Shown here: piece after piece, positions 12,492 through 50,883 of the stretch | How positions within the stretch are numbered: position 1 is the stretch's first letter | How the letters are laid out: the number at the start of each line of letters is the position of its first letter | Origin: Candidatus Bathyarchaeota archaeon | GTDB taxonomy: Archaea; Thermoproteota; Bathyarchaeia; 40CM-2-53-6 | Assembly (NCBI GenBank): GCA_963733055.1 | Contig: CAVTBR010000002.1 | Location: 448,001-512,000 of the forward strand | Direction: 5' to 3' | DNA length: 64,000 nt | Notes under the pieces: generated by a model | Told to the model about the DNA's origin: nothing | The model's database searches: none | The model's input: only the letters and a program-made list of their open reading frames with translations | Translations under genes and position numbers: made by a program

Positions 12492-12569
12492 GGGGCCGTA
12501 GTCTAGCATGGTTATGATACGCGGCTTGGGCCCGCGAGGTCGCTGGTTCAAATCCGGCCGGCCCCACCA
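12492..12569 (+). tRNA. tRNA-Pro(TGG), CCA encoded
   Basis: GGGGCCG/CGGCCCC acceptor stem, CGCGG-CTTGGGC-CCGCG anticodon arm, GGTTCAAATCC T arm, ACCA end. Confidence 0.95.
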
Positions 12570-19748: not shown

Positions 19749-22700
19749 ATGTCCGGCCACACTGCTGGGCGACCAAGCAACAAACAACTCGTCGCAGCAA
19801 TCCTCCTACTGACACTGATTCTAGTAGAGGTCGCCGCCAACCCCGCATACTCAAGCGGCATCAACACCTCTTCAGTTGGTGTATCGCCTGGCAAGTTCGA
19901 CCTGCCGCTTGGGAGCGACTTCCCAACGTTCGGCTCGGTAAAACTAAGCTACCCTGACAGCGCCATATTAAACAACAGCACGGGAGATCTTCTCTTCAAC
20001 GTCACCCTGAACCCACTCATGCTCAACCCCACCTCCGCTCAGGTATGGTCCTCTGTCTTTCCACATCCTGAAGTTCAAGTGTGGGGATCGGGTTTTTCTC
20101 CCAAAGATACAAGTTGCACTCTGTCGGGCATAACATTCGCCTCCGACTTGTGTACGATTTCGGGAGGTAATCTGACTGCAGGCATGACATGGTTTGATGT
20201 CGGAAACGTCCCGGCTGGCACGTACATAATTACTGCAAAGGGCTACCCGGGAGGCGATTTCTCCTCAGCCTCCTTCACCGTCCTCCCTCCATCACTTATT
20301 CTCAACCCTTCTTCCGGCCCAAATGGTGCAATTGTAAGTGTCTCTGGGGTGGGATTTTACTCGCCACCCGCCGACACCATGTGCTCCTTAACTGGTAAGC
20401 CCGTGTCCGCGTCTAGTTGCAGCATAACGAGCGGCGTCCTAACAGGTGCATTTGCCGTTGCCTGCGTGCTGCCTACCTGTGGACCTGGAACCTATACTAT
20501 TGCTGTGACAACGAACGGAGGCGATACAGGGGAGGCGTCGACTTCATTCATGGTGACAACCACATCTTCTCCTTCTCAGCAGATGATTTTGAGTTCCTCG
20601 TTCGGCATGCCTGGAACAATTGTTTCAGTGGTTTCAGGGATAGGATTTTCCTTAACTGATACGGTCTGCTCAATCTCATTCTCGGGCAAGCCCCCAATCA
20701 CGGTAACTCTTACTCCACCTTGCACTATGGCTGGAGGAGTGATTGGCCCACCTCTACCAACATTTATTGTCCCTGCCATTCGGCCAGGCAGATACATCAT
20801 TAATGCAACCGGAATTCCGGGGCTCGACAATGCAACGTACAACTTTCTGGTCTTGCCGGCCTCCCCTTCACCACCAATCTCGGCACCGGTTAGAATCGAC
20901 ATCTACATCCCTCCTGACTTCTCCGGGTTGGTAATAAGCAAAACGTGGACAAGCTTCACGAACAATTACGACCCAAACAGCATCCAAGTGTCGAGACAAT
21001 CATCATCTGATCAGATCGGGCCTAGTTGGTGGAGAGTGAGCATTTACAATATCACCGTAACGCGAAGTCCCAGCTCCTACACGCCTCCCCTAGTTGGCCA
21101 TCGAATATTCATCATTAACCTGAAACAATACATCAGACTCTTTCAGGTGACATCCCCAACAACAGCAGGACGATATTTCTTCAAAGCTTTCATAAACGGC
21201 GTCTCAATCGGAGCGGCAAACTTCCCAACTCTCGTAGTCAAAGCCAGTCGCGACCCTGCATACATTTCCGGCGTCCTTCGAGACTTGGGCGATCGAAACG
21301 CTTCGAGAGCGGGACAACCAATAACTTATCCTCTTCTACCGAACGGGACCGGCGCTCGCGTATTAGCTACGGGTTACGATTACCTCGGCCGATCAGTTTC
21401 AGCCCAGGCGTTTCTCAATTCGACCGCCGGCGGAAACTATACACTGTTTGGGGTCGCGCCCGGCACTTACAACATAACCGCCTACGCTGCGGGATACATC
21501 CCAACACTTCGACCGTGGACCGTAAGCGTTGCTGCCGCCCAATCGCTAGAAGGGGTTGACGTGTATCTTTCAGACAGCGTACTAATCAGCGGAACAATAT
21601 TGTCCAAAGGCCCCGATGGAAACTTAATCCCCTGGGGAGGGCTTGCAGGGATAAACGGTACTTCGATACCCCGAGCAATTACCGTTGACCTTCTAGATTT
21701 GGCAGGGAACCTGGTAGCATCAACATCAGCCCCTTATGCTACAACAAGTTTTACGGACCCCACGGCAACGTCGTTTGATTTCGGCCCCGGCTTAGTCCAT
21801 CCTCCGATTCAAGATCAAGTTGGTTTTGATGGACGCATTCCCCAAGACTTCGCTAATTACACTTCAGGCCTAGTGTCAGGCGACTATCTCCTCCGTGCTT
21901 ACGTAACAGGTTACATCCAACTCGAAGAAGTTCGGGTTCATGTGGGCAATTTTACGACGGATACAGAGACTGTGTTACCTCTCATCCGAACGGGAAGCAT
22001 TCGAGTCACTATCCACTTCAAGTACTCAAACAATACACTAGTCGCGGAACCGCTGACGGGCTTCGACAACAGCGGTCAGCCTCTTCAAATTGGAGGTACG
22101 CTGACTGTTTCAGCATACGACCAACAGGGCATACTCAGAGCACAAAACGTAACGTTCGTACCGCCAGGAAGTACGAATGAAACAGTTGACTTGCTAGGAT
22201 TCAGCAACACTCGAGGTTTCGGCACTTTTTCACTACTGTCACAGAATTACGGCCTCCCGCCCGGCACATATTACATCGTTGCGCGTCTTACCTCCTCTCC
22301 AAGTTTCGCTGGGTTCGCTAACATCGGAATCCGAACTCTCTACTACCAAACAGACATCCATCAAGCCACTATCGGCCTTACCACTGAGGAAACCCTGATC
22401 AGCTTCTCAATATATCGCGCAGGAGGCGTCCTGTTGACTCTCCGTTCGATCAATTATCAAGTTCCCCCTCTCAACACAACTTGGACTTACCCTGGATCGA
22501 CAATCAAGCTCTTGATCATAGACCCAAACGGAGTCATCTATCAGACAAATTCGACGCAGGTGCGGAGAGCAACGAATGTAACATTCACTTTTGATGGGCT
22601 TCTTACTGACACTTATACGATAATAATCCAAACCCACGGCTATACTCAGCAGCAGATAATCCACGTGTACGTCAGACTTGGCGCTATCTCTGACGTGGCA

Positions 22701-23537
22701 ATTTACATGATTGCGAACCCAGTAATCGATCTAACGATATTCTACACGCATGAAGCCATCCTCAGCTCGATCAACTCCACATTGCCTTTCGCCCAACCGA
22801 TCAACAACTTGACCGCCACGCCGACGCGTATCGAGGTTTTCGATGATCAAGGGAGATTCGTTGCGGCGAATGCAACTTACATTAAGAACGGAAACATGAC
22901 CGCCCACTTCATCTTATCTGGATTCGACCTTTACTATGGAGATCCACGGCTTATCTGGTCGGGTTTCTATGATACGACAGATGCAGCGAGCCAAATTCCG
23001 GGTGGTTTAATTCTATACCCGTGGAATATGTCGCCTCACACGTACACGATTAGAATTTGGGTTGATGGTTACTACCAGTTAGAGCCTTTACGCGTAATTG
23101 TTACCGCGCCGCAGGATGTTTCCGTAGTTACATACATGGATCGGGCGTCCCGGATTTTCGGGACCGTAATGGGACCAGACTACTTCGACGTTGCCCGTCA
23201 CTTGTCTTGGGCGACAATTACGCTTCAGCCAAACAACAGCACCCTCACAAACATCATTGATGTTCGGCCTGGAAACTACACAACGTCTAGCCTCGACGGA
23301 TCTTTCCAAGTATGGGTTCCTCAGGGAACATACGGAATGGGAGTGGCCTTGGAGGGATACGCCACATATTCAGCTATGATTTCCGTCCCGCAGGGCTCGG
23401 ACATGTACATGCAAATCTGGTTAGACAACTACCAACCCTCAAGCCAACTCATCTCGACCGCTACCTCAAACTCTACGAGTACCTTGAATGCCAAGGCGCA
23501 CCTACGGCAAATCCCAAAAACTCTGAATAGGCTGTAG
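19749..23537 (+). CDS. Large secreted beta-sandwich protein (TIG-like repeats and carboxypeptidase-regulatory-like domains)
   Basis: 1262 aa, signal peptide, repeated G.GFS..DT.C and PG.Y.I motifs, many N-x-S/T sequons. Confidence 0.7.
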   Translation: MSGHTAGRPSNKQLVAAILLLTLILVEVAANPAYSSGINTSSVGVSPGKFDLPLGSDFPTFGSVKLSYPDSAILNNSTGDLLFNVTLNPLMLNPTSAQVWSSVFPHPEVQVWGSGFSPKDTSCTLSGITFASDLCTISGGNLTAGMTWFDVGNVPAGTYIITAKGYPGGDFSSASFTVLPPSLILNPSSGPNGAIVSVSGVGFYSPPADTMCSLTGKPVSASSCSITSGVLTGAFAVACVLPTCGPGTYTIAVTTNGGDTGEASTSFMVTTTSSPSQQMILSSSFGMPGTIVSVVSGIGFSLTDTVCSISFSGKPPITVTLTPPCTMAGGVIGPPLPTFIVPAIRPGRYIINATGIPGLDNATYNFLVLPASPSPPISAPVRIDIYIPPDFSGLVISKTWTSFTNNYDPNSIQVSRQSSSDQIGPSWWRVSIYNITVTRSPSSYTPPLVGHRIFIINLKQYIRLFQVTSPTTAGRYFFKAFINGVSIGAANFPTLVVKASRDPAYISGVLRDLGDRNASRAGQPITYPLLPNGTGARVLATGYDYLGRSVSAQAFLNSTAGGNYTLFGVAPGTYNITAYAAGYIPTLRPWTVSVAAAQSLEGVDVYLSDSVLISGTILSKGPDGNLIPWGGLAGINGTSIPRAITVDLLDLAGNLVASTSAPYATTSFTDPTATSFDFGPGLVHPPIQDQVGFDGRIPQDFANYTSGLVSGDYLLRAYVTGYIQLEEVRVHVGNFTTDTETVLPLIRTGSIRVTIHFKYSNNTLVAEPLTGFDNSGQPLQIGGTLTVSAYDQQGILRAQNVTFVPPGSTNETVDLLGFSNTRGFGTFSLLSQNYGLPPGTYYIVARLTSSPSFAGFANIGIRTLYYQTDIHQATIGLTTEETLISFSIYRAGGVLLTLRSINYQVPPLNTTWTYPGSTIKLLIIDPNGVIYQTNSTQVRRATNVTFTFDGLLTDTYTIIIQTHGYTQQQIIHVYVRLGAISDVAIYMIANPVIDLTIFYTHEAILSSINSTLPFAQPINNLTATPTRIEVFDDQGRFVAANATYIKNGNMTAHFILSGFDLYYGDPRLIWSGFYDTTDAASQIPGGLILYPWNMSPHTYTIRIWVDGYYQLEPLRVIVTAPQDVSVVTYMDRASRIFGTVMGPDYFDVARHLSWATITLQPNNSTLTNIIDVRPGNYTTSSLDGSFQVWVPQGTYGMGVALEGYATYSAMISVPQGSDMYMQIWLDNYQPSSQLISTATSNSTSTLNAKAHLRQIPKTLNRL

Positions 23538-36859: not shown

Positions 36860-36970
36860 GCCGGGGTGGCTCAGCCTGGTAGAGCGCCAGTCAGGCTTAC
36901 GGGACGAAACTCATAATCTGGAAAGCGATGGGCCCAGAAGCCGCGGGCTCGAATCCCGCCCCCGGCACCA
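36860..36970 (+). tRNA. Elongator tRNA-Met(CAT) with two non-canonical introns (~36891-36908 anticodon stem; ~36923-36938 variable region)
   Basis: GCCGGGG/CCCCGGC acceptor plus ACCA; CCAGA-CTCATAA-TCTGG arm restored after removing 18+16 nt (77 nt). Confidence 0.85.
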
Positions 36971-43818: not shown

Positions 43819-44673
43819 ATGGTCAAGAAATGCCCATCATGCGGCTACAACAACCGTGATGACGCATCATTCTGTTCAAGCTGCGGAGCATCTCTCGCAG
43901 GCAGCGCGGTCCCCTCACTCAAACCAGTCCCATCCGTACGCGTAGTAACCCCAGTCAGCCCCGGCGGACCTATCCGCGTGCCCGCACCAGGACAATGCTA
44001 TTATCACCCCAACCTCCCAGCAGTATACGTCTGCAACAGATGTGGAAGGTCGATTTGTCGCGATGATTCAAAAACATACATGGATCTCGTCCTCTGCCCG
44101 CAATGTTACGCAGGAGTCGTTCCAATGGTAGCACAACAACCACCCCAAGCCGCCTATGCCCAACGCCCACCCCAAATGGCGCCGGATTACGGTCCCCCGC
44201 CAATGGCTCAAGCCTATGGCCCGCCACCGATGGCACCGCCTATGGCTGCGCCAGCATTCGGTCCACCACCGATGGCTCCACCAGCAGCTGCTTACCCAGT
44301 CTATCCACCACCGCCACCAATGTTCGCCCCCGCATCACCGAGAGCACTCTGGGGCTTCATCCTATCAGTGATCGCTGGAATCCTAGTAATACTCAACGCA
44401 GCAGCTTTACTCGCACCAGGCTTCTACGCGATGTGGGTAGGTGTATTCTTCTGGTTGCCAGCACTCGGCCCTGCTAGCTTAGCATTCGCAATCGGTATAA
44501 TCATAGGGCTCATCCTGGTAATTGGGTCAATACTGATGCTGCTCGGCTACGGAACAATCGGAAGCATCGTCGTCTTCCCGTTGGCAGTGTTAAGCCTCAT
44601 AATCGGCGGAGGCTTTGTGGCCGGCTTCGTCTTAGGTGTGCTGGGCGGTATACTCGGCATGCTCGGACGGTAA
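43819..44673 (+). CDS. Zinc-ribbon + B-box-like finger + Pro-rich + multi-TM membrane protein
   Basis: CPSCG..CSSCG; CYYH..CNRC..CRDD..CPQC; GPPPMA repeats; C-terminal hydrophobic helices. Confidence 0.8.
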   Translation: MVKKCPSCGYNNRDDASFCSSCGASLAGSAVPSLKPVPSVRVVTPVSPGGPIRVPAPGQCYYHPNLPAVYVCNRCGRSICRDDSKTYMDLVLCPQCYAGVVPMVAQQPPQAAYAQRPPQMAPDYGPPPMAQAYGPPPMAPPMAAPAFGPPPMAPPAAAYPVYPPPPPMFAPASPRALWGFILSVIAGILVILNAAALLAPGFYAMWVGVFFWLPALGPASLAFAIGIIIGLILVIGSILMLLGYGTIGSIVVFPLAVLSLIIGGGFVAGFVLGVLGGILGMLGR

Positions 44674-44720: not shown

Positions 44721-44956
44721 TTCAGTACGACGCCTAGTCGCTATTGCGCACTGGCGTGCTTCGAAGGCTGAGAAATGTATTTCTCTCCTTAATCCCCGAA
44801 GTATCGGGAGGGTTCGTTTCGTATTCGTACACCACGACGCTCGAATAAGCCCTCTGGAGCGCTCAGTCTCCATCCGACTCACCCTAACACGATGAACGCA
44901 TGAGCCATCAAGTTAACTACACTCTATAAGATTAGGAGATGAAGGGGGACCAATCC

Positions 44957-46491
44957 ATGTCCTACGTCAGCATCTCGAAACCTGTGAAGGATAGGATTGT
45001 CCAAGCTGCACGGGACACAGAGACCGAGATTATTGGGCTTCTACTCGGTAAACTCCAAGATGACACGATAATCGTCGAAGACTCGACCACCCACGAATTT
45101 TCGTCCGAACCACACCCGTCATGCTTCCGGCCAGCTCCATAGCAATCATAGCTGACCAACTCCTTACCGGACGCTTGAAGGGCAACATCGTAGGATGGTA
45201 CCACTCACACACAAGCGGAGGGCTGTTCTTTTCCGAGACCGATATTTCAACCCAAAAAAAACTACAGCAATTCTCATCCTTGATTACGGGGTTGGTGGTT
45301 GATTCAAGAAACGGGGAAGTCGGATACTTCAGAGTCATCCCAAGAACTGACAAAGCCGTTCGACTCCCTGAATCAAGCATCATAGTTTATTCTGATCCGA
45401 AAGACGCCGTCCCGCCCCCTCAAAGGACAGCGACAGTTGTAACTCCCACGCCTACTGTGGAAGTTCGAAGACACCCTCCTGCACGTCAGGTGCTGACGAG
45501 GCGTGCGGCGTTGGCGGTTATTTTGATTGTCCTAGTAATTTTGGTTGCGGGATTTGCAGGTCTGATCTACAGTTACAAGTTCGCCTCCCAAACATCAGTA
45601 GCAATCATTCATAACCCCGTCTTGGCGGGGACCATTGGAACGCCAATAACGATTTTCGCCAACACAACCGGGCTTATACATAATGTGACTTTGGTTTATG
45701 GTCCGGAAAAACAGGGTCCGATTACAGACGTGGCAATGAAGACGGTGGTTCCTGGAGAATTCAGCTACGTGATTCCAGGCAATCAGGTGGCGGGGAATAT
45801 GGCCTACTACATCAAAGCTTCCGATTCTGCGGGCAAGCAAGTTAACACTACCACTTATCACATCGTTATTTCTGATTTCAACATCCTACCACCAACCAGC
45901 TCGCTTACTGTATACAGAACCAAGTCTGCCGCCACAAACGTCCAAATAGCGTCCATCAACGATTTTACGCAACAGGTGCAACTCTCGGCAAACGGAAGCC
46001 CCAGCGGCATAACGATCGCATTCTCAAGAAACCCTGCCCCTACAGGAACAGTTAGCCTGAACGTGACCGCAAACTCGTCCACCCCCAACGGCACCTATCC
46101 AATAGCCCTGATTGCCACCTACCTACCACCTCAATCACCCCAAGTAGCAAGGCAAACGACTCTCAACGTAACCGTAGCCGACTTTGAGCTTCAAGCCTCA
46201 ACGACCAGTGTAACGGTCCCGGCCGGCTCAAAAGCGACTTTCAGCCTGAAGTTAACCCTCCAGAAGGGGTTCGTGGACCCTGTGAACATAACCCTGCTGA
46301 ACCTTCCAGAGGGAGCAAAGTACACTTTAACGGGCAACCCGACGGTTCTACCTGGAGGTCCCGGGACGGCTACCATAACGGTTCAGATAACAATACCAGC
46401 CTTTACAAAGCCGGGAACATACCCTGTCGTTGTAGAGGCAGTTGGGGGCGGGCTAGTGCACGCCTTGACTGTCGAGGTTACAGTAAGGTAG
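44957..46491 (+). CDS. JAMM/MPN+ deubiquitinase fused to TM helix and extracellular beta-sandwich domains; 1-nt frameshift near 45115
   Basis: ETEIIGLLLG (ORF 44939-45142) joins VGWYHSHTSGGLFFSETD (ORF 45121-46491) to form E..HxH-x7-S-x2-D; RRAALAVILIVLVILVAGFAGLIY TM. Confidence 0.85.
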
Positions 46492-46545: not shown

Positions 46546-46788
46546 ATGAAACTATTCATTCAAGCGCCTATCGGACCCCAGACGGGTTTGGCGGAGATCG
46601 ACGTGATCCCCGACCACACGGTTGCTGAAATCAAGCAACAGGTGTGCACCTCATTCGGCGTTGACCCGACGACGGTTGCTCTGATGTACGGAGGCGCAAT
46701 ACTAGACGAAGGCTCAACTATAGCACGATCGGGCATTCCAGAAAACGCTCAACTCGCCCTCATGCCTTACAACATAATTGGCGGGTAA
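46546..46788 (+). CDS. Ubiquitin-like modifier ending in di-glycine
   Basis: 80 aa beta-grasp pattern (TVAEIKQQV, LMYGGAILDE, SGI), ends IIGG*; GGAGGTG SD. Confidence 0.9.
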   Translation: MKLFIQAPIGPQTGLAEIDVIPDHTVAEIKQQVCTSFGVDPTTVALMYGGAILDEGSTIARSGIPENAQLALMPYNIIGG

Positions 46789-46800
46789 GGCTGAGACCGA

Positions 46801-47394
46801 TTGGACGCTACTCTGCTATACAAGGAAAAGAGCCTCCTCAACCACCAATTCCCCACGATCACAGCCCTGAACGACCCACCTACCCAGTTCGACGGATTAA
46901 TTCGATGCGAGAAAGGAGAGGTAAGACGCCTTGCTGAGAAGGGAGTATGGCCCTTCACAGAGTACGTGAACTGGAACAGATTCAAACTCGACCTGCCAAA
47001 CGAATACCCACTGAAACCTCCCGTGGCGACTTGGCTGACAGATATCTCCCACCCAAATATTGTACCGAACATTCCGAATGCAGTTTGCGTGTCCGTCCTA
47101 GGTGAAAAATGGGATCCGCGACTCAAACTGATCTCGGTCGTCAATTCACTCCACTATCTCCTCACCGACCCAAACCCACAAAGCGTCTTCGACAACCCCC
47201 GTGCCTTGAAAGCTGCCGACGTTTGCCGATCACATGGGTTCCCTAGAATGACCAAGCACAAGGCGAAGGAAGAAGTGAACGATACAGTTCATTTCAACAT
47301 AGTCCCCATACCAAGAACGCCAACCACACTCTCCCAACCCGGCGACATAGTGACCTTCTCAATCCCCAGGAGAGAAAACCGGACGCCGCGATAA
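46801..47394 (+). CDS. E2 ubiquitin-conjugating enzyme (UBC fold)
   Basis: LPNEYPLKPP..TDISHPNI..VCVSVL..WDP..LLTDPNPQS: HPN motif and catalytic Cys. Confidence 0.92.
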   Translation: MDATLLYKEKSLLNHQFPTITALNDPPTQFDGLIRCEKGEVRRLAEKGVWPFTEYVNWNRFKLDLPNEYPLKPPVATWLTDISHPNIVPNIPNAVCVSVLGEKWDPRLKLISVVNSLHYLLTDPNPQSVFDNPRALKAADVCRSHGFPRMTKHKAKEEVNDTVHFNIVPIPRTPTTLSQPGDIVTFSIPRRENRTPR

Positions 47395-48644
47395 TGAAAC
47401 TCGTTGCCTCCATCCCACGGTATAAGCAAATTGAGATCGACCTAGCCCCGACAAGAACCATCATGGAATTCAAACAGAAAGCCTGCGAGAAACTAGGTAT
47501 AGAAGCAGACCTTACAAAATGCCTGCTCCACGGTAAGCAACTGACAGAAAACTCATCCATCGCACGGCTCAAGAACGAAAAAGACCCTGTGATTCTAGAT
47601 TATCTCTGGGCACGGCAGCTTCTCGTCTGGGGCGCCGAGGGACAGCGGAAGATTCGAAACGCAACTGTACTTTTGGCGGGGGCGGGAGCGATCGGTAATG
47701 AAGCCGCGAAAAACCTCGCCATGCTTGGGGTTGGAAGAATCATAATAGTGGACCGGGACAATATCGAGCTGTCAAACGTAAGCCGAATGGTCTTCTTCCA
47801 ACCTAAAGACCTGGGCAAGAACAAAGCCGAATTCTTGGCGAAGAACCTTCATCTCACGTATCCATTCGTGACGACTACCGCCTACCGGGGCGAACTTGAA
47901 GGCATGCCGTTGAAACTCTACCTTGACTCCCAAGTTGTTCTTTGTGGTTTGGATAATGTCGTTTCACGAATCTTCCTTACGCAAACATGTCGTAAGTACT
48001 CCATTCCACTAATCGATGGGGGAATTACTGGGTTGAACGGAAGGGTTCATTCCTACCTGCCCCCCGATGACCCATGCCCAATCTGCCTCTTCCCCGCGAA
48101 CCAATACTCCAACATCGCGGGCCTACGTAACCCGTGCGAGGGGCCACTGGAACAAGAAACCGTTCCTTCTTTCGCCACCTCCATTTCCCTAGTGTCATCG
48201 ATTCTCGCGCAGGAAACAGTCAAGGTAATCCTAGGGTTAGGAGAGTACAAGTCAACTAAGAAGTGGCCTGAGAAAACTGGCCAACCGCTCAGATCAATCC
48301 TGTTCGTTGACCTGAAGAACAATCGCTACAGCACCATGGACCTCAAAAGAAGCGAACGATGCATTGTCTGCGGGAAAGACGGAACGGGAAGAACCCTGGT
48401 TCCGCGCGGTGACATGTCGCTCGATGCCCCTCCTGGTTCCAAGGCCACGGTCGAAGAATCAATCCGGAAGGTTTCCAACCTGGCCAAGGGAGAACTCACG
48501 ATTTTCGCAGAAACCTCAGAGGGTACACGGAAGATAGAGAGCAAATCGTTGCTTCGTAGCGTTGGAAAACGGGGCGATTACCTGAGAATCTTGGCGGAGG
48601 GCAAGAACAAAGAACTCCACGAATCAATACTAAGACTCACATAA
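47394..48644 (+). CDS. E1 activating enzyme (ThiF/UBA) with N-terminal Ubl-like domain
   Basis: RQLLVWG, GAGAIGNE, DRDNIELSNVSR, CPIC, NPCE (putative catalytic Cys), CIVC. Confidence 0.92.
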   Translation: MKLVASIPRYKQIEIDLAPTRTIMEFKQKACEKLGIEADLTKCLLHGKQLTENSSIARLKNEKDPVILDYLWARQLLVWGAEGQRKIRNATVLLAGAGAIGNEAAKNLAMLGVGRIIIVDRDNIELSNVSRMVFFQPKDLGKNKAEFLAKNLHLTYPFVTTTAYRGELEGMPLKLYLDSQVVLCGLDNVVSRIFLTQTCRKYSIPLIDGGITGLNGRVHSYLPPDDPCPICLFPANQYSNIAGLRNPCEGPLEQETVPSFATSISLVSSILAQETVKVILGLGEYKSTKKWPEKTGQPLRSILFVDLKNNRYSTMDLKRSERCIVCGKDGTGRTLVPRGDMSLDAPPGSKATVEESIRKVSNLAKGELTIFAETSEGTRKIESKSLLRSVGKRGDYLRILAEGKNKELHESILRLT

Positions 48645-48802: not shown

Positions 48803-49216
48803 ATGATTCCCTGTCAATCATGCGGCAGACCAAACGCTGAGGACGCGAGATTTTGTTTCAGTTGCGGCGCAGCACTTTCAAGGTTTCCACCAGTCAAGGT
48901 TGAAGTCAAATCCCCATTAACAGGCCAGACAATTCCAACTCCACGAGGCGCCCCTCCGATGTATACTCCCAGACAGATTCAGACGCCGGGAAGCTGCTAT
49001 TACCACCACGATCTACCATCAGCTTACGTTTGCACGCGGTGCGGCAGGTCGATTTGTGCAGGTTGCAACAAGCAATACGGAGTGCTAAACTTCTGCACCG
49101 AATGCTACTGGAACTTAGCCCCGAAGTTCAGTTATGGGCAGCAGCAGTATCAACAGCCCCAGCAATACCCTATGCCATACCCGCAACAAGAGCAAGGTAT
49201 GAACCCGTTCTTCTAA
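48803..49216 (+). CDS. Soluble zinc-ribbon + B-box-like finger protein (paralog of the 43819 N-terminus)
   Basis: CQSCG..CFSCG; CYYH..CTRC..CAGC..CTEC; Q/P/Y tail. Confidence 0.8.
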   Translation: MIPCQSCGRPNAEDARFCFSCGAALSRFPPVKVEVKSPLTGQTIPTPRGAPPMYTPRQIQTPGSCYYHHDLPSAYVCTRCGRSICAGCNKQYGVLNFCTECYWNLAPKFSYGQQQYQQPQQYPMPYPQQEQGMNPFF

Positions 49217-50883
49217 GCTAAACGGCCTTCTTTCTTCAAACTCTCAGTTATTTCCTTCAACTGCTCAACAGAGATGCCAAGCTCTGTTGACGCCTCGGTC
49301 ATAGATATGCTACCCTCATGTTTCACGATGTAATCATACACCCTATTCTCCGCCGAAGGCTCGACAATAGCCGCCACCGGGGTTCCGCATTTCTCGCAGA
49401 ACTCGGCTCCCCTCGCTACATTGTTACCACAACTCTTGCAAACCATGAATGGCTCTAGCATTGCCTGCCCAGTTTTTTGCGGGCGAAGTCCCGCAGCCCT
49501 GCTCTCAAGCTTACTCCTCCTGTGAACTACCACTGCAGTAACTCCAACAGCAGCAAAAGCTACGGCGCTGCCCCCAAAGAGTAGGATAAGTGGTACGTAG
49601 TCTACTGCCCATTCAGCCCGCACAACGTACGGGCCATTCACCGTTAACATCCATGAGCTCCCCGTGTTATTCAGGGTCTGAGTCGCTGGATCAACACTCC
49701 ATCCCGTAAGGGCATATGAAACGGGCCAGGTACCCGAAGAGGTTGGGGAAGTAATCGTTGCGGTCGTTCCTCGATCATACCAGCCCGACCCTGAAACTGT
49801 TCCGTAGGTCGAACGCACATCAACATAGTACTGTGTGGTGTAAGCTAGCGTCACGTTTGTCGGACCAGTGACCAAAACCGAGTAGGACAGATTCTTCGAA
49901 ACAGAGCTGTTGTAAGACCAACCCGTGAAGCGCAAGCGTTCCACTGGGCTCAGATTAATGATGGAGGGCGCTGGCCCCATTTGCACGCTAGAATTCGCAT
50001 CGTACCAACCCGCGTGCGTCTCATTGTAGGAGGAGGATACGCTCGGTGAGGAGTATGTCACGGTTAGGAGGTATTGAACGAGGTAGTTGGCGCTGACAAT
50101 TTTCGGCCGATCCATTAACACCATTCCCGAAGGTTGCTGTCCAGAAGATTCCCCGCCCCAATGATCGAACTCCAGGCGCGTATTCGATGAATTAGACGCA
50201 ACCATGCTAGCAGAAAAGTTAGCCTCCACGCCCGAATCGTACCACTCCGAACCTGCCAAGCCTGTGACGTTCGGAGGATTGGACTGTACGGTCAAGAAGA
50301 ACTGGGTCTTCCAATTTGCGACCGCTGCCTTTGGCCCATCCATGACTATCGGGTTGGACGTCAATTGGGTCCCTGTGGCGTCGCCAGACCAACCTGTGAA
50401 TATGTTCCTCGTCCCCTGGCCCTCAGCGATTTGTTGATCATTCAAAATTGCGTGCGCCGTTGAGCCAGAGTTGTACCATGCCTGGCCGGTTATTGAACTG
50501 AAGCCGCTTTCCACGGATAGGAAATATTGAGGGGTGTAGTTGAACTGATGGCTGCCTGGCGTGCTGACGCCCCACTCCGTATTATTTTCGTAATATCGTG
50601 TCCCGTTGCCGTTCCCTTGCACGTAGGCATCCACTAAGATGACGTGCGGGTTGTTGTTTGCTGAAAGAGTATACGTGGCCGAGCTCCCGCCGCTCAATGT
50701 TCCGTTAAAGCTTCCATCGACGTAGACGTGGGTTGTGAGGGAGGGCGGTAGACCCTGCACTGTGACGTTAACCGTGTAGCTGTTGTCGCCACGAACGTAA
50801 GAGGCGTTGAGAGCGATTAGGACGATGGATAAGGCAATAACCACTAGCAATCGCCCTGAAGACCCCAAAGTCAGCCGTCTCAA
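49213..50883 (-). CDS. Type I membrane protein: extracellular beta repeats, TM, cytoplasmic zinc ribbon and winged helix
   Basis: Signal peptide; repeated Q(Y/F).L.V..WY..F.GW units; TM; CKSC..CEKC; wHTH-like VYDYIVKHEGSISMTEASTELGIS. Confidence 0.75.
   Translation of the reverse strand: MRRLTLGSSGRLLVVIALSIVLIALNASYVRGDNSYTVNVTVQGLPPSLTTHVYVDGSFNGTLSGGSSATYTLSANNNPHVILVDAYVQGNGNGTRYYENNTEWGVSTPGSHQFNYTPQYFLSVESGFSSITGQAWYNSGSTAHAILNDQQIAEGQGTRNIFTGWSGDATGTQLTSNPIVMDGPKAAVANWKTQFFLTVQSNPPNVTGLAGSEWYDSGVEANFSASMVASNSSNTRLEFDHWGGESSGQQPSGMVLMDRPKIVSANYLVQYLLTVTYSSPSVSSSYNETHAGWYDANSSVQMGPAPSIINLSPVERLRFTGWSYNSSVSKNLSYSVLVTGPTNVTLAYTTQYYVDVRSTYGTVSGSGWYDRGTTATITSPTSSGTWPVSYALTGWSVDPATQTLNNTGSSWMLTVNGPYVVRAEWAVDYVPLILLFGGSAVAFAAVGVTAVVVHRRSKLESRAAGLRPQKTGQAMLEPFMVCKSCGNNVARGAEFCEKCGTPVAAIVEPSAENRVYDYIVKHEGSISMTEASTELGISVEQLKEITESLKKEGRLA

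Follow-up and report, generated by a model that had tools for sequence, protein, structure and literature searches.

A single gene at positions 44957-46491 on the forward strand of a 64,000-nt stretch of DNA (the window) from a Bathyarchaeia soil archaeon probably encodes a membrane-tethered JAMM (MPN+) zinc isopeptidase of the Rpn11/CSN5-like kind, and it lies within a eukaryote-like ubiquitin gene cluster. The genome to which the window belongs, G000, is 2.88 Mb in 3 contigs. The predicted product has a catalytic domain on the cytoplasmic side, a disordered linker, one transmembrane (TM) helix and three immunoglobulin (Ig)-like domains on the outside, and it would act on ubiquitin conjugates at the membrane. 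A sequence-only reading of the same DNA had proposed a receptor-like deubiquitinase whose control would lie with an outside ligand or with envelope state. The enzyme and its layout hold up well under comparison with relatives; control through the ectodomain finds no comparative support, as that part is replaced in one subclade and absent from one further genome.

The closest relative of G000 is G019 (83% identical). Its protein is the orthologue used here for residue numbering, the query for the database search (175 proteins at E <= 0.001, 120 of them listed) and, together with a family alignment of 48 sequences, the basis of an AlphaFold model. Intact genes were counted in 40 related Bathyarchaeia genomes, taken from the genus, family and order, and a wider survey sampled 201 genomes of the class; there, full-length means a frame of 503-625 amino acids (aa) that covers the query from residue 1 to at least 460. 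Synteny was compared at 29 loci of relatives.

A single stop-free frame of 496-625 aa, running from the JAMM domain through the ectodomain, is present in 23 of the 40 related genomes. Among the listed homologues 112/120 are 501-534 aa long at 98-100% coverage and the other 8 are 282-459 aa; one of these short ones, P0014 (456 aa), is the truncated gene call made from the window itself. More than 100 database clusters show the same 512-aa architecture, far beyond what chance would give. In the class sample the full-length form occurs in 17 of the 201 genomes, all 17 in the same order as G000 (families f1, f4-f8 and f10); the other orders searched yielded none. The sequence-only reading had allowed that its single protein would fall if the frameshift were real and orthologues degraded, or if orthologues encoded the JAMM domain and ectodomain as separate genes. 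The orthologues are intact, and the two parts share one frame at 21 of the 23 loci of Ig type. Separate genes were considered for the two exceptions and set aside. One of them (G036, locus L045) has a frameshift just after the TM helix, leaving an ectodomain frame with no start or signal of its own, and a congener, G134, has an intact 536-aa frame; in the other (G028) the joint between JAMM domain and ectodomain falls in a run of N. [In the JAMM protein of L045 (5117-5941) there is also an additional zinc ribbon at the N-terminus (Pfam Zn_Ribbon_1, 2e-4).] Proteins with the TM helix and ectodomain and no JAMM domain are found in family f2; the one locus examined, L054, is outside any ubiquitin cluster, and they appear to be paralogous surface proteins and are treated as such.

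The names under which the homologues are deposited are generic ('proteasome lid subunit RPN8/RPN11', 'Mov34/MPN/PAD-1 family protein'), with P0122 labelled Candidatus Bathyarchaeia archaeon. An ESM Atlas look-up places the protein in its own kind of cluster (JAB), 94% archaeal, in which Candidatus Bathyarchaeota is the commonest source. More than 100 intact sequences are therefore already in databases, and it is the architecture, with its setting, that seems not to have been described before: a search of open full-text papers, subscription journals and supplements being outside it, turned up no account of an archaeal ubiquitin cluster with a JAMM protein anchored in the membrane.

The start of the gene, ATG at 44957, agrees with that of the orthologue (MSYVSI...). 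The catalytic glutamate (45026-45028) is within an EIIGLLLG motif in the frame of 44957, and the remainder of the active-site signature, H-S-H-x7-S-x2-D (WYHSHTSGGLFFSETD, 45202-45243), is in the frame of 45121, so that the complete JAMM set noticed from the letters is indeed there, split over two frames. Its residues (E24, H83, S84, H85, S93 and D96 in orthologue numbering) are invariant in 48/48 aligned family members. Pfam JAB (PF01398) matches both pieces, the C-terminal one at 26.5 bits and the N-terminal one at 21.8 bits, slightly below the cut-off of 22.5; the intact orthologue scores 46.8 bits against the same profile and 42.2 bits against Prok-JAB (PF14464, cut-off 25). In the orthologue model the N-terminal domain has the MPN fold, and Foldseek aligns it with CSN5, Rpn11 and the Rpn11 homologue of Candidatus Caldiarchaeum subterraneum (CsRpn11) at a root-mean-square deviation of 2.6-3.5 A and 24-35% identity (TM-score 0.75 for CsRpn11 structure 6fjv). 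The same Caldiarchaeum protein is the best match by sequence among solved structures (6fjv, E 1.6e-13), ahead of CSN5 (3.4e-12) and Rpn11 (1.8e-8). A complex prediction for two copies of JAMM residues 1-150 scored 0.08 against a mark of 0.42 and weighs neither for nor against pairing. The gene product is, by sequence, a member of the JAMM/MPN+ family, within the Rpn11/CSN5-like group linked to E2-containing clusters, and isopeptidase activity is predicted for it from motif and fold. Motif, profile, fold and predicted topology agree in supporting the earlier assignment of a deubiquitinase-type JAMM protein with its catalytic domain in the cytoplasm.

Topology was judged by simple rules (Kyte-Doolittle hydropathy, charge bias and the placing of N-x-S/T sequons, the potential sites of N-glycosylation) rather than by a dedicated predictor. 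Two arginines are followed by a hydrophobic run of 24 residues (~45505-45576), the sole segment above 1.6 on the Kyte-Doolittle scale in the 456-aa frame, and a hydropathy scan found no N-terminal signal-like hydrophobic segment. The mean number of lysines plus arginines is 5.9 in the linker before the helix versus 0.4 in the 15 residues after it, in keeping with the positive-inside rule. All 9 sequons of the 456-aa protein are C-terminal of the helix. Their density is 1.65 per 100 aa in the ectodomain versus 0.25 in the JAMM domain, 5.0 are observed in the ectodomain versus 3.4 expected by shuffling, and three sequon columns are conserved, in 37-43 of the 48 sequences. These features point to an N-in, C-out arrangement, with the JAMM domain cytoplasmic and the Ig-like domains outside the cell. 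The Pro/Thr-rich linker, basic residues and N-in helix of the earlier reading are all borne out, N-in being supported by the charge bias.

The model of the G019 protein (mean predicted local distance difference test score, pLDDT, 82.6) begins with an alpha/beta domain (residues 1-145); after it come a helix (182-208) and three beta-sandwiches (~214-300, 301-410 and 411-512), the latter mostly at pLDDT >90; the stretch of about 300 aa of beta-sandwich with sequons that had been read from the translation is in this way resolved into three domains. For the C-terminal part, Foldseek returned tandem Ig triples at E 2e-11, titin I67-I69 among them. No specific family could be assigned to the ectodomain: Pfam gave matches below cut-offs only (NPCBM_assoc, fn3_5 and PKD, with DUF5980, I-set and DUF11 for the giant proteins mentioned next), and the Foldseek matches are generic Ig. 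In a profile search of 1.84 billion representatives its modules turn up in giant proteins (1000-4000 aa) with as many as 27 repeats, and G000 itself has at least 4 large frames (589-957 aa) sharing the two-domain unit of the ectodomain. Its divergence outpaces that of the JAMM domain: identity is 49% for the ectodomain versus 75% for the JAMM domain at locus L004, and 40% versus 61% at L010.

The setting of the gene is conserved. Its cluster runs, in order, Zn-finger membrane protein, JAMM protein, ubiquitin, E2, E1 with a fused ubiquitin-like (Ubl) domain, and a small Zn-finger protein. The JAMM gene is followed by ubiquitin and E2 in 28/29 loci of relatives, the exception being L054, the locus of a paralogous surface protein already mentioned. 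The Zn-finger membrane gene is upstream of it in 24/29, with 2 of the 5 misses at locus edges. There is one UQ_con match in G000, and thus a single E2 in the genome. Ubiquitin is 80-98% identical across the order. That it already ends in GG, as had been noticed, is so in G000 (NIIGG-stop) and in its genus; the ends are GGR, GGN and GGTL in G036, G028 and G051.

The Zn-finger membrane protein has an N-terminal zinc ribbon, a C-x2-H...C-x2-C...C...C-x2-C module, a Pro-rich linker and a Gly-rich, multi-helix hydrophobic C-terminal half, and its Cys/His ligands are invariant in 31/31 sequences. It may be a membrane-embedded E3. A profile search against the PDB with the Zn-finger part gave the ArnA zinc ribbon (3.7e-5) and the B-box region of TRIM28 (0.004). 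Ribbon and second Cys/His module are shared with the small soluble paralogue that flanks the cluster on its other side, and the latter recurs downstream of E1 in relatives.

In the deposited sequence the gene does not read through. The 1-nt frameshift noted earlier near 45115, which separates the catalytic glutamate from the rest, is present and falls between 45116 and 45117. The first frame is open from 44939 and meets a stop at 45140-45142; the second opens at 45064 and, from a first ATG at 45121, runs to 46491 (456 aa). In G019 one 512-aa open reading frame reads ...SSEPHRVMLPPSS... through the position of the break, the protein across it being ...EFSSEPHRVMLPPSS..., and the DNA there is CACCGCGTC versus CACC-CGTC in the deposited stretch, relatives reading CAC CGC GTC. 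For 45113-45120, CACCCGTC is then the form carrying the lesion and CACCGCGTC the form with the G restored. In contigs from public runs (X1, X2, X4 and X6) the extra G behind 45116 is present in 3/3 runs covering the site (X2, X4 and X6), these contigs being 90-95% alike and so from relatives rather than the same strain.

How often such breaks occur in G000 was gauged by a census with one relative: 22 stretches of G019 (0.42 Mb) yielded 290 frames, taken from stop to stop and 200 aa or longer, which were searched against G000. At a threshold of 60% identity and coverage, 219 frames (79,469 aa) qualify as having orthologues, and the census detects breaks in G000 alone, since the query frames were chosen as open in G019. 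It counted 18 clean frame switches (about 1 per 13 kb), which fall in 15 of the 219 orthologous frames, with three genes switched twice; 15/18 are single extra bases and 3/18 missing bases, and many are beside CG-rich words such as GCGC and CGCG. [Examples are at C1:867339-867341, C1:470624-471259, C1:1549752-1550023 and C2:516514-516516.] Error-prone long-read assembly is a better fit to this pattern than 7% of the genes having decayed. Because of this frequency of switches relative to G019, the gap at 45116/45117 is, on sequence evidence, most likely an assembly indel and not biology. It follows that split genes in G000 should be checked against relatives before being read as biology. Within the window itself, 45 kb of synteny with G013 and G019 shows the JAMM gene to be the sole long gene split in this way. 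[At 19749-23537 a 1262-aa gene is intact in the window while its counterpart in G013 (L016, G013:C12:110001-130000) is in pieces over several frames; the G013 assembly may have indel errors too.]

Should the frameshift instead be real, this strain would hold a pseudogene of a membrane JAMM protein that is functional elsewhere in the family. The base is absent from the deposited sequence, no same-strain read among the runs listed contradicts that absence, and the missing base is outside any homopolymer. Decay is nonetheless unlikely, given the rate of switches in G000 genes that are otherwise conserved, some of them switched twice, and the state of the gene itself: both pieces are still 81-83% identical to G019 with no further stops (G019 residues 1-69 match 44930-45136 at 81%), and the remaining genes of the cluster are intact. 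Programmed -1 ribosomal frameshifting, by which the two frames would be joined in translation, was also considered, as the frames overlap at 45064-45142 and the direction of the shift would be -1. It was rejected and its probability is negligible: all relatives examined read through in one frame, no X-XXY-YYZ slippery heptamer was seen on reading the overlap, and many other such breaks exist in G000.

With the gene taken as intact, the following mode of action is proposed. A flexible tether of ~30 residues would keep the JAMM domain close to the membrane on its cytoplasmic side. From there the domain would strip ubiquitin from membrane-associated conjugates, opposing the E1 and E2 of the cluster and probably the Zn-finger membrane protein. 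The sequence-only reading had reasoned that, with a GG end already in place, the protease would serve deconjugation. For G000 this stands, and what has to be added concerns relatives, where one or two residues follow GG. Because ubiquitin ends in GGR, GGN or GGTL there, and because trimming is known for CsRpn11, which both processes a ubiquitin precursor and acts on ubiquitin conjugates (PMC6043591), trimming of the precursor is probably part of the job in some lineages. The Ig-type ectodomain would be an anchor or dock in the envelope, among giant surface proteins built of the same modules, and not a required sensor.

This view of the ectodomain comes from its fate in relatives. In five genomes of the same genus as G000 (G004, G014, G015, G018 and G021) a protein of 381-423 aa stands in place of the Ig-type JAMM protein; in the reading frames of G004 (L048, 4885-6030) and G015 (L050, 5129-6400) the JAMM domain and linker are followed by DUF998, a polytopic membrane domain (Pfam 6.6e-24 and 8.5e-19). 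In a tree of 27 JAMM domains (midpoint-rooted for drawing only, with the long branches L042 and L044 flagged as unsure) the five group together as a single clade (99/99) inside that of the genus (100/99), whose remaining members are Ig-type, as are all other families. The sequences fit a single replacement of the Ig-type part by the DUF998 form. In G051, from another order, the JAMM protein (L057, 4806-5444) is 212 aa long and ends in a bare hydrophobic C-terminal anchor with no ectodomain, and the cluster keeps its order of Zn-finger membrane protein, JAMM protein, ubiquitin, E2 and E1. A single-pass receptor would be expected to keep its ectodomain wherever enzyme and pathway are kept, and in these six genomes it has not. 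Because the ectodomain is replaced or lost with the cluster retained, it is membrane tethering, and not the sensing of a ligand, that is the conserved feature, and the core function would have no need of the ectodomain.

Some findings pull the other way. Ectodomain residues such as Y284, D307, F337 and H503 are invariant across the 48 sequences, and the Ig-type ectodomain persists in all seven families that have the full-length form (f1, f4-f8 and f10), so a specific function beyond that of a passive anchor can be argued. For the proposed E3, Prok-RING_1 (0.0037) and zf-B_box (0.0086) are below the Pfam cut-offs, and a fold search with the Zn module (AlphaFold, pLDDT 71.6) gave no Foldseek match at E <= 0.001, the best rows being NZF/RanBP2-type and LIM fingers at E >0.3 (a likeness of the first finger that is non-significant). 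For the break in the gene, the public runs listed contain no same-strain reads over 45112-45134, and X1, the run that matches the strain best (0.35 of words), gives no cover there; and the lesion, a G missing from CCGCG, is not of the commonest error type in G000, where most switches are extra bases.

The first pair of these findings also favours receptor-like control, in which the Ig-like ectodomain would sense an outside ligand or envelope state and so turn the JAMM domain on or off, for instance by clustering. The single-pass layout with the enzyme inside and Ig-like domains outside is of the kind expected for it, and the faster divergence of the ectodomain than of the JAMM domain is often seen in surface recognition domains. 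We consider such control improbable all the same, as the DUF998 subclade and G051 make the ectodomain dispensable for retention of the cluster, the long disordered linker (pLDDT <50 at residues 157-180) would be a poor transmitter of conformational change, and CsRpn11, the nearest relative among characterised enzymes, needs no partners and is active on its own as a monomer (PMC6043591). For the Ig-type form signalling through the ectodomain is possible; for the family as a whole we prefer a tethered isopeptidase whose ectodomain anchors it.

The features of the gene and its cluster are collected below.

Table. Features of the membrane JAMM gene and the surrounding ubiquitin cluster, in window coordinates
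Feature	Position	Strand	Basis
Zn-finger membrane protein	43819..44673	+	Zn_Ribbon_1 3.4e-8, DZR 4e-7; start placed from the orthologues' MVKKCP...
JAMM domain, N-terminal piece	44957..45116	+	frame of 44957, catalytic Glu 45026-45028; JAB E 1.8e-4
Frameshift site, one base (G in relatives) missing	45116..45117	+	contigs of relatives, G019 DNA alignment
JAMM domain, remainder	45118..45384	+	frame of 45121; H-S-H-x7-S-x2-D at 45202-45243; JAB 6.1e-6, Prok-JAB 1.7e-5
Pro/Thr-rich linker, predicted disordered, basic residues at its end	45385..45504	+	pLDDT <50 at orthologue residues 157-180
Single TM helix, predicted N-in / C-out	45505..45576	+	sole hydrophobic segment; model helix 182-208
Predicted ectodomain, three Ig-like beta-sandwich domains with sequons	45577..46491	+	AlphaFold, Foldseek; stop 46489-46491
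Ubiquitin, 80 aa, GG end	46546..46788	+	Pfam ubiquitin 1.3e-9; C-terminus NIIGG-stop
E2 ubiquitin-conjugating enzyme	46801..47394	+	UQ_con 1.9e-16; HPN motif and Cys; HPNIVPNIPNAVC
E1 (ThiF family) with fused N-terminal ubiquitin-like domain	47394..48644	+	ThiF 4.1e-50; ubiquitin 1.7e-6, residues 10-66
Small soluble Zn-finger paralogue, 137 aa, Q/P-rich tail	48803..49216	+	~40% identity to the N-module of the membrane protein

The Ubl domain fused to E1 (47394-47600) has no GG end, and it is kept in relatives, where a ubiquitin query matches the N-terminus of E1 (L005 and L006). The convergent neighbour beyond the cluster (49213-50883, minus strand) encodes a protein of 555 aa in which an InlB B-repeat-like domain (Flg_new_2, 5.2e-8) is accompanied by a zinc ribbon close to the C-terminus. 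Elsewhere in the window there are two tRNA matches: that at 12492-12566, and that at 36860-36967, whose length of 108 bases versus a 71-position model suggests an intron-containing gene.

A wider scheme can be sketched, which we regard as speculative and rather doubtful: a ubiquitylation cycle at the membrane, with the Zn-finger protein as E3 and the JAMM protein as its antagonist, would control how membrane and envelope proteins are turned over or sorted, and the ectodomain could dock in the surface layer and report its state to the cytoplasm. It would be a prokaryotic counterpart of ubiquitin-based quality control of membrane proteins, akin to endoplasmic-reticulum-associated degradation or to the endosomal kind. 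Both ends of the ubiquitin cycle appear to be fixed to the membrane, one by the deubiquitinase and the other by the Zn-finger protein, a possible ligase, an arrangement shared throughout one order of archaea that are widespread in soil and sediment. Archaeal ubiquitin clusters (those of Caldiarchaeum and of Asgard archaea) have been discussed as precursors of the eukaryotic system, and the JAMM protein characterised from them is soluble (PMC6043591). If the present reading is right, ubiquitin signalling at membranes could predate eukaryotic endomembranes, and with 5-6 genes the cluster would be a small system in which to test it.

Among known systems, eukaryotic Rpn11 in the lid of the proteasome and CSN5 in the COP9 signalosome have the MPN+ fold and zinc site in common with the membrane JAMM protein. 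Both work in large soluble complexes, paired with an MPN- partner, and a Pfam scan of the cluster genes found neither an MPN- partner nor genes for such a complex in the Bathyarchaeia ubiquitin cluster. We know of no eukaryotic JAMM protein with a TM helix and ectodomain of its own. USP19 and USP30 are deubiquitinases whose TM anchors likewise keep them at a membrane, to act on conjugates close to it, though they are cysteine proteases and have no extracellular domain. In AMSH, which acts at endosomes, the logic of a deubiquitinase held at a membrane is the same (PMC2172215); its recruitment is via protein partners and not a TM helix, and it has no extracellular domain.

In archaea, HvJAMM1 of Haloferax and the SAMP/JAMM systems likewise have a JAMM metalloprotease reversing Ubl conjugation (PMC4443979). 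They are unlike the membrane JAMM cluster in that their modifiers are ThiS/MoaD-type SAMPs, they have E1 only and no E2, and the JAMM protein is soluble. G000 also has separate short JAB genes of the SAMP-system kind (frames of 145-153 aa). CsRpn11 (6fjv/6fju) is nearer, sharing fold and catalytic motif, and its gene is likewise beside those for ubiquitin, E1, E2 and Zn-finger/RING proteins (PMC6043591). The Caldiarchaeum arrangement, in which ubiquitin, E1, E2 and E3 adjoin a second E3 and the JAMM gene (PMC6043591), is mirrored by that of the Bathyarchaeia. The two differ in that the Caldiarchaeum ubiquitin is made as an 87-aa precursor (PMC6043591) and that of G000 ends in GG with no need of processing. 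CsRpn11 itself is a soluble protein of 202 aa with C-terminal helices (PMC6043591), in whose place the protein described here has the disordered linker, TM helix and three Ig-like domains. Judged from its sequence, it would be unlike every characterised JAMM protein found in having both a TM anchor of its own and an extracellular domain.

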